From the UHGV virus genome UHGV-2038699: DNA of 25,477 nt; one strand, given 5' to 3'. Under the pieces are notes generated by a model that did no database searches, was not told the DNA's origin, and worked only from the letters and a program-made list of their open reading frames with translations. This document shows positions 5,327-25,333 of the stretch, one piece after another; the first letter of the stretch is position 1; every line of letters begins with the position of its first letter. The position numbers and the translations under genes were made by a program. This stretch comes from a virus.

Positions 5327-6067
5327 TTAATTAGGCGCGGTAGTATTCCCGCTGCCATTCTGCACACCGCCATGGGTATGCTGGATGAGGCTCTTTCCTC
5401 CAGCCTTCACATCGTTAGTCACCGTCACCGGCCCAAGCATCGTCGCAGTACCGCCACTTTCGCCCATTCCCTGAGACAGATTGCCATTAATCGTTACGTT
5501 GCCGTTCAGCGTGATAGTCGGGGATGTGATTGTCGTTCCACCTTCAGCCGTAGCCGTGAGCTGGCCCGGTGTTTGAACGGTGATGTTATGTCCTGCGGCA
5601 ACCTCTACGAACGCCGCACCATCATCGGTTCGCAGCTGCGCGGCGCTGGTACTGATACCGCTGATTTTCTGTGCTTGCGACTGCGGGCCAACGATGGCGA
5701 ACGCATCAGATAAGTCATGCTGTCGCGGATCGACGGTCTCCTGAACGCCGCCGCTCTGCCACCAGAAATCGATGCAACGGTCGGCAAAGATCAGCAGGCA
5801 CTCGTCGCCTTCTTTTACCGGAAAGGTCAGCGTGCAACCGCCGCCGCGCGGGAAGATAACCGGCACATCCACCAGCGGTTTTAATTCGGTGGAGCCATCG
5901 CCAACAATACCGCGAAGCGCTACCTCTACTGTGCAGGTAACAGTGTCAGGATCGAACGACTGAATGATGCCGGGCATCGCTACGCGCATCTGGGTAGACA
6001 CCGAATCGGCAATGGCCTGCGCGGTCTGCTGCTCACCCCCGATCTGTGATTGAGTTGGAATTGGCAT
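5327..6067 (-). CDS. Baseplate spike / assembly protein V (gp5-like OB-fold N-terminus, beta-helical C-terminus)
   Basis: N-terminal region (GIIQSFDPDTVTCTVEVAL...VPVIFPRGGGCTLTFPVKEGDECLLIF) matches the phage baseplate V family; C-terminal repetitive TITSPTITLNGNVTINGN and an HTHGG motif typical of spike tips. Confidence 0.75.
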   Translation of the reverse strand: MPIPTQSQIGGEQQTAQAIADSVSTQMRVAMPGIIQSFDPDTVTCTVEVALRGIVGDGSTELKPLVDVPVIFPRGGGCTLTFPVKEGDECLLIFADRCIDFWWQSGGVQETVDPRQHDLSDAFAIVGPQSQAQKISGISTSAAQLRTDDGAAFVEVAAGHNITVQTPGQLTATAEGGTTITSPTITLNGNVTINGNLSQGMGESGGTATMLGPVTVTNDVKAGGKSLIQHTHGGVQNGSGNTTAPN

Positions 6068-6078
6068 AAAACCCCCAT

Positions 6079-6101
6079 AAAAAAACCAGCCGAAGCTGGT
6101 T
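6079..6101 (-). terminator. Intrinsic terminator-like hairpin (CCAGC-cgaa-GCTGG followed by U7 on the minus-strand transcript) immediately upstream of the V RBS
   Basis: Stem 6086-6090 / 6095-6099, then a run of 7 A on the plus strand (6079-6085), i.e. U7 on the minus transcript; the V RBS (GGGGG) starts 2 nt after the U-tract. Confidence 0.55.
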
Positions 6102-6289
6102 TGGTATCAATTATCTCTTAGTAACTAAGCTACATCAGTGTGAAGTAAGGCTTTTCCGCTGCAATGGCACACATTCACAAGGTGTATTAGGATATGTTTG
6201 CAACAAGTAAGCATTGAAAATCAATTTCAGCCATGAAGCCGCCATAGAGTGGACCTGCACCATCGCATTATTGACTACAGGAGTAACAA

Positions 6290-6580
6290 ATGGGATTTAG
6301 ATTTCGTAAAAGAATCCGGATTGCGCCCGGACTCGCGATCAACATTAGTAAAAGCGGAGTAAGCACTTCAATTGGTGGTAAAGGTTCCACCATTAACATC
6401 GGAAAAAAAGGCGTAAAGATGACAAATGGCCTTCCCGGCACGGGGCTGTCGCATACCACTAACCTTTACTCTCCCGGGAAATCGACAGAAAAAAAACAAC
6501 TTACTCATAAGCAAAAAATAATTAGAAACATCCTGTTCGTAATTATTGTGTTTATTATAATTAAAGCTCAATATTTTTGA
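6290..6580 (+). CDS. DUF4236-like small membrane protein (N-terminal MGFRFRKRIRIAPGLAINISKSGVSTSIGGKG motif, C-terminal TM helix)
   Basis: ATG at 6290 with CAGGAG RBS 6 nt upstream; opposite strand to all structural genes; its own terminator follows; AT-rich relative to flanking genes; C-terminal hydrophobic segment ILFVIIVFIIII. Confidence 0.65.
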   Translation: MGFRFRKRIRIAPGLAINISKSGVSTSIGGKGSTINIGKKGVKMTNGLPGTGLSHTTNLYSPGKSTEKKQLTHKQKIIRNILFVIIVFIIIKAQYF

Positions 6581-6585
6581 CGCAT

Positions 6586-6617
6586 GCCCGCCTATCTGGC
6601 GGGCTATTTTACTTTTC
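6586..6617 (+). terminator. Intrinsic terminator of the DUF4236-like gene
   Basis: GCCCGCC-tatct-GGCGGGC stem-loop followed by TATTTTACTTTTC, 6 nt after the stop codon. Confidence 0.65.
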
Positions 6618-6954
6618 GGCAGTCGTATGTTGCATACTGACGCGGCGAATCCATGCTGGCTTGCAGCCACTGTGCGTTGAGAATGGCTTTGCCGTTGCGC
6701 TTGATGTACTCAAGCCCAACCCAGCGGCCGGGTTGATTAGTTGCAACCGTCCATTCCATCTTGAGATTTTGATAATCTTCCTTGGCTTTCAGAAAGGTCA
6801 TTTTCTGGTTTTCTGGCTTTACACCATTAATATGCATAAAACCATCATTACCTGCGGTGAGGCGATATGGCCCGCATTGGGTATCAGCCATTGCAGTTGA
6901 AGCTCCGACCAACGAAAGAACGGCTCCGCAGATAACATTCCTAATTTTTGTCAT
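6604..6954 (-). CDS. Secreted/periplasmic protein of unknown function, 116 aa, cleavable signal peptide, two Cys
   Basis: Starting at the ATG at 6954: MTKIRNVICGAVLSLVGASTAMA|DTQCGP (n-region K/R, hydrophobic core, AMA cleavage motif). Convergent with the DUF4236-like gene. The ORF track extends it to 7014, but that would overlap the hub gene. Confidence 0.6.
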   Translation of the reverse strand: MTKIRNVICGAVLSLVGASTAMADTQCGPYRLTAGNDGFMHINGVKPENQKMTFLKAKEDYQNLKMEWTVATNQPGRWVGLEYIKRNGKAILNAQWLQASMDSPRQYATYDCRKVK

Positions 6955-6955
6955 A

Positions 6956-8020
6956 TCACACCTGTACTTTTTGGAGCGTCGACTGACTATATAATTCACG
7001 ACTGCCACGCGCAAAGCACATCAAATCCATGTACCACGCCTGACCTCTGGTGTCGCCAGTATAGTCGATAGCTTTGACGATATAAACGCCATCCGTCGCA
7101 ATGCTGGCAGCCTGTGACGTCGTACCGGTCAGCACACGGTTGCCATTCTCTTCAGTTTCGGTGATACGCCCGGGCGACTGTGCGATTTCGCTATTACCGA
7201 GCGACGCGCGGTACACCGAAGCCTGATCGAGCTGGATAAGACCATTAATGCGGATGTTTGGGTTTATCAGGCACCGCACGTTTACGCCGCCGCCCATCGT
7301 CTGTTGCGGCATACCAATCAGGCCAGTATTGGCATTCAACACAATGGCTTCGTGAATATATTTATCCTCCGGCACCATCTGGACCTGACCATCCACCAGC
7401 TGCCATGTCGCTTTGCACTGCGCTGCAATATTATCCATCACGTTACGAGTGGATGAGTAAATCGCGCGGCCACGAGGAAACACGGTATCAGGAAAATCGC
7501 CGGTAATGCCCTGTGTCACGCCGAACACGTTGAAATCCTGCATCGTCGCCCGGTGCAGATCCGCAACGGTATAGCCAGCGGCAAGCGTAGTGATGGTAGT
7601 CGCGTAGAGGAACGCTTCATGATCTCCAATAGCCTGAATCAACACCCAGGAATCGGTAATGTTGTCCTTCCCGGTTACGGTAAAGCGAATATCACCGTCA
7701 AAAATCAGGCCGTAGTTCTGACCGTTCACCTGCCCTATCTGGTCTGGTGAAATCTCTCGGGCGACGCCGACCTGGCTCGCATCAACATCCGGCGCTATAC
7801 CGTCATACCCGGCAATGATGCGAATTTTGGCAAACTCCTGCCCCAGTATCTTGTTCGTGGTATCGGTCGAAAGGTTGTAAATTTTCACGTTCGCCACGCG
7901 CGGCCAGCGTGTGTCTGCCCACTCGATCTGGAACGTGACCTTAAAGTCAGACAGGGAAACGCCCTGCCCGTTCTGGTCCAACAGTTGCAGCTCAAAATGG
8001 CGCATCCAGTTAAGAGACAT
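6956..8020 (-). CDS. Baseplate hub / tail protein (P2 gpD / Mu gp44-like position)
   Basis: 354 aa, located between the tape-measure-proximal genes and spike V; assignment is by size and synteny only. Confidence 0.45.
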   Translation of the reverse strand: MSLNWMRHFELQLLDQNGQGVSLSDFKVTFQIEWADTRWPRVANVKIYNLSTDTTNKILGQEFAKIRIIAGYDGIAPDVDASQVGVAREISPDQIGQVNGQNYGLIFDGDIRFTVTGKDNITDSWVLIQAIGDHEAFLYATTITTLAAGYTVADLHRATMQDFNVFGVTQGITGDFPDTVFPRGRAIYSSTRNVMDNIAAQCKATWQLVDGQVQMVPEDKYIHEAIVLNANTGLIGMPQQTMGGGVNVRCLINPNIRINGLIQLDQASVYRASLGNSEIAQSPGRITETEENGNRVLTGTTSQAASIATDGVYIVKAIDYTGDTRGQAWYMDLMCFARGSRELYSQSTLQKVQV

Positions 8021-8022
8021 TT

Positions 8023-8328
8023 CTACTCCTGCACGAAAATGAGGTGGCTGTATGTGCCGAGGTTGGTTTTGGTGGGCTCGTCCGGTGCGCCTACATCGCA
8101 GCCAACGAGCAGCGCCCCGTTAATACCTAGTTGAGGATATTGCTCAAGAAGATTTACACCGGTTACCAGCGGCACGCCAGAAAGAAGCGCAGCACCGCCG
8201 CTATCCATCACGTCCATGATCCAGCCAGCCGCATCGCGCCAGATGATCCTGAGCGTATAGGTGGTATTGCCCAGCAAAACGCGGAACTGCTGATTGTCAG
8301 GAGAAAGCGGTATTTCGTTAAACTGCAT
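8023..8328 (-). CDS. Tail/baseplate assembly protein, hypothetical
   Basis: ATG at 8328 with GGGGGA RBS, 1 nt after the upstream stop; the track ORF extends to a TTG at 8364. Function unassigned. Confidence 0.4.
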   Translation of the reverse strand: MQFNEIPLSPDNQQFRVLLGNTTYTLRIIWRDAAGWIMDVMDSGGAALLSGVPLVTGVNLLEQYPQLGINGALLVGCDVGAPDEPTKTNLGTYSHLIFVQE

Positions 8329-8329
8329 A

Positions 8330-8932
8330 TCATCCCCCGAATGCTGATGTAACGCTTCCGCCAAGCTGGCTCAGCAAGGATTCGTTTGGCTGTGTAGTGG
8401 ATTTCGTCCCGGAATTTTGCACCGCCGATGTGCTGACGCCATCCTGCATATCTGATTTATCAGCAACACTAACGCTCTGCGTTTGCGACATGATCACTTC
8501 ACGCAGGGTAAGCGTGCAGTTCAGCACGTTTTCGCTGGTTTTGTCCGTTGTCACCTCGATGGCTCGCACCAGCATATTGCTGTACACCCGCTTTCCGGTC
8601 ACCACATCGAACGGCACCCGAGAGGACTGGAGATCCAGCAGTTGCTGATAGGTCTCTTTCGGGCTTAGTCCGGCGCTGAGGCCGATTGAAGATGTATCAA
8701 TGAAGTCCAGCAACGAACCGCCACCAGCGAAGCCGCATTCCATTGTGACTTCGCTGGGGCGCTTATACGCATGATCGGCGATGAAGCCCGAAGCGCTATT
8801 CGTTGTTGGCTTCTCCACCGGGTGCTCAGTAATTTCGAGCGCATCAGAATGCTTTTCGGAGACGACCACGCTGGGGATCAGCAGGCCAATTCGCCGGGAT
8901 TGCTGGCGAAAAATCGCTGATAAAATATCCAT
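8330..8932 (-). CDS. Tail protein, hypothetical (between tape measure and hub)
   Basis: 200 aa; ATG overlaps the tape-measure stop codon (translationally coupled). Confidence 0.4.
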   Translation of the reverse strand: MDILSAIFRQQSRRIGLLIPSVVVSEKHSDALEITEHPVEKPTTNSASGFIADHAYKRPSEVTMECGFAGGGSLLDFIDTSSIGLSAGLSPKETYQQLLDLQSSRVPFDVVTGKRVYSNMLVRAIEVTTDKTSENVLNCTLTLREVIMSQTQSVSVADKSDMQDGVSTSAVQNSGTKSTTQPNESLLSQLGGSVTSAFGG

Positions 8933-25177: not shown

Positions 25178-25253
25178 TGGTGCTGGTTAACGGACTTGAA
25201 CCGCTACCCATTCGCTTACAAGGCGACTGCTCTACCATTGGAGCTAAACCAGC
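25178..25253 (-). tRNA. tRNA gene, anticodon UGU (Thr) by manual folding
   Basis: 76 nt with encoded CCA; 7-bp perfect acceptor stem, D-loop with GG, T-loop TTCAAGT, anticodon loop CTTGTAA. Confidence 0.6.
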
Positions 25254-25258
25254 ATGTT

Positions 25259-25333
25259 TGGCGGGACAGCGTGGGCTCGAACCACGATAAGAAGGTTAAC
25301 AGCCTTCCGTAATGACCTTTATACGACTGACCC
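25259..25333 (-). tRNA. tRNA-like gene, anticodon GUU (Asn) by manual folding; possibly degenerate
   Basis: 75 nt with CCA; T-arm CGTGG-TTCGAGC-CCACG; anticodon arm GAAGG-CTGTTAA-CCTTC; one mismatch each in acceptor and D stems. Confidence 0.45.

Follow-up and report, generated by a model that had tools for sequence, protein, structure and literature searches.

A small exported protein encoded in a fixed slot between the baseplate hub and spike genes of SEN34-like prophages

To our knowledge, the prophage envelope proteins that stop phages at entry are few and mostly unrelated to one another. Entry is blocked by Cor, Llp, Spackle and HK97 gp15, all of them small proteins of the envelope, and several are encoded within or beside tail genes. 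Entry-blocking prophage proteins matter for phage therapy and for the competition between prophages. Here we analysed a small gene in the virus genome UHGV-2038699, a stretch of 25,477 nucleotides (nt) that we call the window, which is the late region of a SEN34-type lambdoid myovirus prophage. The gene lies between those for the baseplate hub and the baseplate spike, and encodes a protein of 116 amino acids (a.a.). The overall explanation that we favour, at slightly less than even confidence, is that the product is an exported accessory barrel, encoded in a moron-type unit and acting at phage entry.

The open reading frame (ORF) is on the minus strand, with its ATG at 6954 and its stop codon at 6606-6604, and a single base separates the ATG from the TGA stop codon of the hub gene (6958-6956). 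RefSeq calls the identical 351-nt ORF, as a hypothetical protein, in a 99%-identical Escherichia coli prophage. Among 100 related loci with a reconstructable reading frame the ORF was intact in all, and the pairwise ratio of nonsynonymous to synonymous substitution rates (dN/dS) of the mature part was about 0.1. The sole PHROG or Pfam match of the protein was PHROG 3443 (E = 4e-46), whose function is not assigned. In a collection of 5.8 billion proteins, 79 protein clusters matched it, and the named ones all belonged to Enterobacterales. An exhaustive search of 1.8 billion representatives with a hidden Markov model (HMM) returned only 60 matches, four of which, all large proteins, were rejected as repeat artefacts (Flg_new, WD40). 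Relatives are also encoded on 507 IMG/VR contigs. We conclude that the small ORF is a real gene and not a chance ORF, and we are highly confident of the anatomy of the gene and protein and of their placing, as described here.

Export was judged on the family, using 53 distinct presequences reconstructed from the 100 related loci and physico-chemical heuristics. The N-terminus of the window's protein consists of MTKIRN, VICGAVLSLVGAS and TAMA followed by D. These supply a basic n-region, a core of some 17 uncharged residues and an A-x-A motif at positions -3/-1; the whole protein reads MTKIRNVICGAVLSLVGASTAMA followed by DTQCGPY…ATYDCRKVK. The 53 presequences showed near-zero sequence conservation and retained the n/h/c pattern, except in a few fusion or truncated cases. 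Their median 10-residue Kyte-Doolittle maximum was 2.66 and their median uncharged run was 16 residues, with K or R ahead of the core in 91%. Position -1 was A in 41/53, position -3 was A, V, G or S in 50/53, and position +1 was D in 38/53. The retained pattern is what marks a Sec signal peptide that is cleaved. When the window's small protein was searched for a lipobox ([LVI][ASTVI][GAS]C at the end of the hydrophobic core), none was found. The small protein is thus predicted to be exported by Sec as a soluble, periplasmic protein and not as a lipoprotein.

Within the mature domain, the two cysteines C27 and C112 (mature C4 and C89) were invariant across every alignment. An AlphaFold2 model, built on a 50-sequence alignment, was all-beta with eight strands (predicted local distance difference test score, pLDDT, 88.1; predicted template modelling score, pTM, 0.75). 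Since one invariant cysteine sits in the first strand of the predicted barrel and the other in its last, a C27-C112 disulfide is plausible. The best fold matches were generic avidin- or lipocalin-like barrels; a Foldseek search of the predicted barrel against PDB and BFVD gave nothing below E = 0.1, and among PDB sequences a profile search detected nothing beyond weak similarity to avidin and nanobodies. These matches bear on a rival explanation, in which the product is an avidin/calycin-type barrel that binds a small ligand, sequesters or carries a periplasmic molecule, and serves as a host-fitness or lysogenic-conversion factor. The predicted barrel does share the eight-stranded up-and-down layout of avidin and streptavidin, which are calycins. 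In the comparison of biotin-contact residues three aromatic positions align, the N-terminal contact residues being aligned by no tool. The sequence match is to a local hairpin only, and the Pfam Avidin model (PF01382) had no match in 32 family members at E ≤ 1. In addition, the barrel, at 93 a.a., is shorter than that of avidin, and the cysteine partner lies in the last strand rather than in beta6. We regard this explanation as rather improbable.

Searches against Pfam, NCBIfam and PADLOC gave no match for the small protein (in PADLOC, none at E ≤ 1), and Pfam searches with 32 family members gave nothing below E = 0.1. The earlier note on this DNA, made from the sequence alone, had proposed a comparison with the small periplasmic proteins YebF, PliC/MliC and Ivy, and no relation to these emerged at the level of sequence or fold. 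The hhalign values were 1.4% for E. coli YebF, 6% for E. coli MliC, confined to the signal peptide, and 0.8% for E. coli Ivy, and Pfam gave no match to any of the three families (PF13995 for YebF, PF09864 for MliC/PliC). In the published literature, searched for SEN34 and its relatives, for the STY106x locus tags and for periplasmic superinfection exclusion, we found nothing on the small protein. It belongs to an uncharacterised family, and is a prophage accessory envelope protein. Other parts of the earlier description stood: an ORF at 6604-6954 (now placed on the minus strand) in the same orientation as the late genes, all of which are on that strand; a clear Sec signal peptide with AMA followed by D at the cleavage site, upheld by the sequence itself and the 53 divergent presequences; and a mature domain of about 93 a.a. 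with a cysteine near each end, whose length is indeed 93 a.a. and whose cysteines are the invariant C27 and C112.

We then considered the position of the gene. The small gene begins within 12 nt of the hub stop codon in 85/85 loci first compared, which comprised annotated phages (SEN34, Mulock, Klebsiella prophages and vB_EcoM-683R1), the near-identical E. coli prophage and 80 IMG/VR contigs. A search based on the hub found the small gene in the slot in 19 of the 20 species genomes with a readable slot. In two of these 19 (Enterobacter bugandensis and Phytobacter ursingii), the barrel is the C-terminal domain of a lipoprotein of about 290 a.a., and the sole exception among the 20, Serratia sp. 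PL17 (prophage L092), has a 379-a.a. lipoprotein with the same N-terminal domain and a different C-terminus. These slot lipoproteins (L089, 5099-5989; L097, 5075-5938; L092, 5068-6207; proteins P0081, P0096 and P0138-P0157) carry a cysteine-rich N-terminal domain of about 190 a.a. that has no Pfam match, joined to the barrel or, in Serratia sp. PL17, to the other C-terminus. The lipoboxes of the fusion relatives are LSGC, LVSC and VTGC, none with Asp at +2, and because a lipobox is present and Asp at +2 is absent, the lipoproteins are probably sorted to the outer membrane.

More distant homologous tails exist that lack the small gene. Hafnia phage yong1, whose hub is 64% identical, has an unrelated non-secreted ORF in the hub-spike slot, and in Acinetobacter phage A785.1 the slot is empty, the spike gene following directly after the hub gene. 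Burkholderia phage BgManors32 carries in the slot, on the opposite strand, a gene for an unrelated 152-a.a. signal-peptide protein (L112, 3493-3951). This ORF was rejected as a homologue of the small protein, since no homology was found, and secreted cargo at the hub-spike junction may be a wider theme. The existence of homologous tails without the gene argues that the small protein is not a baseplate part, and no match to structural PHROG or Pfam families was found for it. A rival view, in which the protein belongs to the virion or baseplate or assists tail assembly and its hydrophobic N-terminus is no cleaved signal peptide, could draw on the place of the gene inside the baseplate block, its coupling to the hub and its conservation in the lineage. 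Besides the tails without the gene and the lack of a structural match, it is opposed by the A-x-A signal-peptide pattern of the 53 divergent presequences and by the lipoprotein-fusion variants; tail assembly, moreover, is cytoplasmic. We consider this rival highly improbable. The small gene is a lineage-specific insertion between the hub and the spike of SEN34-like lambdoid myoviruses of Enterobacterales, accessory to the tail yet fixed within its own lineage.

The composition and the signals around the gene resemble those of a moron. The GC content is 0.41-0.48 over 6100-6950, compared with about 0.54 in the flanks. Upstream of the spike gene, a hairpin followed by T6-8, located 10-25 nt before the spike ATG, was present in 100/100 loci, with stems that differ by compensatory changes and with any upstream content. 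This conserved terminator sits after the cargo slot, and not directly behind the small gene. It splits the late tail operon, so that read-through would need Q antitermination. On the other side of the small gene, the 3' end of the hub gene contains the best sigma-70 match upstream, a promoter-like element that scores 9/12 in the window. A sigma-70 score of at least 9/12 was found in 78% of 82 distinct upstream sequences, versus 2% of 1089 background windows. The element overlaps the conserved hub peptide VYIVKAIDYT, and its conservation alone therefore proves little. As for codon choice, synonymous sites within both hexamers hardly varied: the Thr codon whose four-fold-degenerate third base gives the -10 hexamer its last T was ACT in 85/86 sequences, and the Tyr codons in the element were TAT in 84-85 of 86, whereas the spacer codons varied freely. 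We infer that the small gene heads a moron-type unit, consisting of a putative promoter, the small gene, variable cargo and a conserved terminator.

If so, late transcripts would read through the terminator before the spike gene when the Q antiterminator is present. Without Q, the only genes on a transcript from the putative promoter would be the small gene and whatever cargo shares its orientation, which is the classic moron arrangement. On this model the small protein would be produced late in infection, and the resting prophage would probably produce it as well. Judged from these sequence signals, expression from the prophage seems to us evenly balanced between likely and unlikely.

Downstream of the small gene, the slot that ends at the spike gene (6068-6603 in the window) ranges from 66 to 1718 nt across loci, and is a hypervariable accessory-gene hotspot. 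Among the 100 loci it held 48 unrelated ORF families, on either strand, including toxin-antitoxin pairs of the Phd/Doc type, a T5orf172 protein, a ClpP-like protease and several further proteins with signal peptides. Cargo was absent from three of the 100 loci, and the gap in one of the loci (L031) is only 66 nt. The window's cargo is a gene for a DUF4236 protein with a C-terminal hydrophobic tail. This family, always convergent, occurred in 19/85 loci first compared and accounted for 16 cargo ORFs in the clustering of the 100 loci, and late transcription must run antisense through its gene. The DUF4236 gene was 96-100% identical across the 19 carrier loci, in which the small-protein alleles were 62-74% identical to that of the window. 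The near-identity of DUF4236 despite diverged small-protein alleles indicates that it moves independently.

These comparisons bear on three further suggestions of the earlier note. A functional pairing of the small protein with the convergent membrane protein, offered there as speculation, is refuted, as DUF4236 belongs to a set of 48 interchangeable cargo families and only about one-fifth of the loci have it. The view that the small gene lies outside the conserved baseplate set holds, given the tails of yong1, A785.1 and BgManors32 and the lack of a structural-family match. The candidacy as a moron holds in part: the low GC content, the moron-like signals and the absence from homologous tails agree with it, but the gene is not sporadic, occupying one fixed slot (85/85 and 19/20 in the two comparisons).

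To examine how the gene evolves, we compared pairs of phages whose hub N-terminal regions are at least 95% identical. Among such phages the mature small protein had a median pairwise identity of 0.79 and a minimum of 0.64, versus 0.95-0.99 in the same pairs for the hub N-terminal region, the spike N-terminal region, the gp25-like protein, baseplate J and the SLT domain. The synonymous divergence (dS) of the small gene was saturated in 52% of pairs, compared with about 0.18 for the flanking hub and spike N-terminal regions. The combination of a dN/dS of about 0.1 with saturated dS rules out rapid positive selection, and indicates that old alleles have been brought by recombination into young backbones. 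The small gene is under purifying selection, and its old, diverged alleles recombine among near-identical phages. Three other parts of the tail tip were also mosaic, namely the plug (8023-8364), the last 84 a.a. of the hub (6956-7210) and the spike C-terminus (5327-5680); the C-terminal half of the spike was bimodal, its identity being about 0.4 or about 0.9 between phages that elsewhere are 95-99% identical. The exchanged parts of the tail tip are those that meet the cell envelope.

The small-protein allele co-varied only with the adjacent hub C-terminus (rho 0.39, Mantel p ≤ 0.003). As linkage is the simplest explanation of a co-variation limited to this neighbour, no phage-borne partner is indicated. 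This result also concerns the idea that the product inhibits a peptidoglycan hydrolase in the periplasm, in the manner of MliC/PliC or Ivy, or, like Spackle, inhibits the SLT domain of an incoming tape-measure protein. In kind, the small protein does resemble MliC/PliC, Ivy and YebF, which are small enterobacterial proteins, periplasmic or secreted, that carry a signal peptide and mostly also a disulfide. However, membership in these families failed at both the sequence and the fold level, the allele did not co-vary with the SLT domain (rho 0.07), and no inhibitor motif was identified. We consider such an inhibitor improbable.

Under the explanation that we favour, the small protein would act as a binder in the periplasm, at the cell envelope, and would thereby hinder phage entry. 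It might block a step after outer-membrane penetration, by binding the tail tip or the tape-measure protein in the periplasm; alternatively, it might block an outer-membrane receptor from the periplasmic side, an option that the lipoprotein variants fit, being probably anchored in the outer membrane. Superinfecting phages would thereby be excluded, and progeny would be spared dead-end adsorption. The context is compatible with exclusion, in that the adjacent slot holds toxin-antitoxin and defence-type genes as well as other secreted proteins. Spackle, Llp, Cor and HK97 gp15, all of them unrelated proteins, do such a job. Superinfection exclusion is the likeliest of the functions considered, though less probable than not, and we put it forward with reserve.

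Several observations weigh against this explanation. The promoter evidence is confounded by the conserved peptide motif, and 22% of the upstream sequences are without a good promoter match. No homology to any exclusion protein was found with PADLOC, Pfam, NCBIfam or PHROGs; for the described exclusion and defence families (Cor, Llp, Spackle, Imm, Sie and the PADLOC models), the comparison was made via PADLOC, PHROGs and Pfam. Among close phages, the alleles co-varied with neither the tape-measure SLT domain nor the plug nor the spike C-terminus. Finally, a gene found almost universally in a fixed slot and coupled in translation to the hub could just as well serve the lytic cycle of the phage itself. 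As such a periplasmic helper, the small protein would, for example, tune host peptidoglycan enzymes or the envelope before lysis, or neutralise a periplasmic host factor harmful to ejected DNA or to progeny. A gene that is fixed, hub-coupled and near-universal in its lineage resembles a core gene more than a dispensable moron; the small gene also lies within the Q-dependent late operon and is under purifying selection. On the other hand, the window encodes a full set of holin, endolysin and Rz at another place (for which reason a spanin or lysis role of the small protein was also rejected), and relatives without the small gene are viable. Moreover, the conserved terminator and the promoter-like element suggest that its expression is separable from that of the late genes, and a housekeeping helper would not usually show such deep allelic diversity on identical backbones. 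We regard the lytic helper as unlikely.

The broadest form of the exclusion proposal is that the family constitutes a new class of periplasmic beta-barrel entry blockers of temperate myoviruses, soluble or anchored in the outer membrane, which would exist as anciently diverged specificity alleles swapped between near-identical phages and would mark the fixed edge of an undescribed defence-gene hotspot between the hub and the spike. In this full form the proposal is doubtful.

The features discussed are collected in Table 1.

Table 1 Coordinates of the small gene, its signals and its neighbours in the window.
Feature	Position	Strand	Basis or remark
Gene for 116-a.a. exported protein, PHROG 3443	6604-6954 (stop codon included)	minus	
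Predicted Sec (signal peptidase I) signal peptide, codons 1-23, MTKIRNVICGAVLSLVGASTAMA	6886-6954	minus	sequence and 53 presequences; predicted cleavage after AMA
Mature 93-a.a. domain, predicted eight-stranded beta-barrel, invariant Cys4 and Cys89	6607-6885	minus	
Shine-Dalgarno sequence AGGTG	6959-6963	minus	sequence; 5 nt before the ATG of the small gene
Putative sigma-70 promoter-like element, TTTATA-17 nt-TATACT	7058-7086	minus	hub gene, 3' end; the small-gene ATG lies about 100 nt further downstream
Intrinsic terminator, 8-bp stem and T-run	6075-6102	minus	6102-6083 plus T-run; about 16 nt ahead of the spike start codon
Convergent DUF4236 membrane-protein gene, the window's variable cargo	6290-6580	plus	PF14020, E = 2e-20
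GC-rich hairpin with T-run on the plus strand only, DUF4236 terminator	6586-6604	plus	directly adjoins the small-gene stop codon
Baseplate hub gene (Mu gp44 / E217 gp41-like), constant upstream neighbour	6956-8020	minus	PHROG 196, E = 1e-82; PF22759
Baseplate spike gene (gpV-like, Apex motif), constant downstream boundary	5327-6067	minus	PF18352, E = 1e-41; PF18946

Along the minus strand, the late genes of the window begin with the holin, endolysin and Rz genes, followed by the terminase and head genes. Next come the sheath (DUF3383), the tube (KPP10 Orf10), a chaperone and the tape-measure protein with its C-terminal SLT domain, and then a Dit-like protein, a plug of the Pam3 gp18 type, the hub and the small gene. 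Past the small gene and the convergent plus-strand DUF4236 gene lie the minus-strand genes for the gpV spike, the gp25-like protein, baseplate J, DUF2612 and the fibres. The canonical baseplate genes of the Pam3, E217 and Mu types are each separately present in the window. The near-identical E. coli prophage adjoins torS and carries int/xis, a LexA-type repressor, cII and the N and Q antiterminators. The same combination of lambdoid regulation with myovirus morphology has been described for SEN34 (PMC5261728).

Two further features were observed at the ends of the window. A gene for a resolvase-family invertase (1-594, minus) adjoins two opposed sets of genes for a tail-fibre C-terminus and fibre assembly (602-1509, plus; 1481-2886, minus), and the region 1-2886 looks like an invertible host-range switch of the type known from Mu (G segment) or P1 (C segment). 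Two tRNA genes lie on the minus strand (25181-25253 and 25262-25333), upstream of the holin gene. In the near-identical E. coli prophage, this site corresponds to the interval that separates the Q antiterminator gene from the lysis cassette.

The small-protein family is common, occurring on the 507 viral contigs and in many genomes of Enterobacterales, E. coli, Klebsiella, Salmonella, Serratia and Yersinia among them, and the small size and confident predicted fold of the protein should make it easy to test. The fixed small gene also provides a simple landmark by which SEN34-like prophages could be searched for the hotspot, whose 48 cargo families in the 100 loci include toxin-antitoxin and defence-type genes. 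Without an exclusion role, the small protein would remain a well-defined, conserved hypothetical periplasmic protein with unusual allele shuffling.

Among known systems, Spackle (gp61.3) of T4, a periplasmic inhibitor of the tail-spike lysozyme, is likewise a phage-made periplasmic protein of about 100 a.a. with a signal peptide. It offers a possible logic, namely to neutralise the wall-degrading activity of the incoming tail, for which the candidate target here would be the tape-measure SLT domain. Cor (phi80, N15 and T1) and Llp (T5) are outer-membrane lipoproteins that block FhuA, small envelope proteins of which some are encoded among tail genes. The window's small protein differs from these in having no lipobox and no homology to them, but lipoprotein fusions of its family, probably sorted to the outer membrane, occur at the same slot. 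In comparison with the lambdoid morons for envelope proteins, represented by lambda bor and lom and by gp15, the superinfection-exclusion moron in the tail gene block of HK97, there is no relation in sequence or fold; the small gene is fixed across its lineage and not sporadic, and is translationally coupled to the hub, and its product is predicted to be a soluble periplasmic barrel, not a membrane protein nor, in the window, a lipoprotein. As in those morons, however, a small gene of low GC content lies among the late and tail genes of a lambdoid prophage, and here too it is accompanied by a promoter-like element and by a downstream terminator that Q-modified polymerase would pass, and its product appears to be targeted to the envelope.
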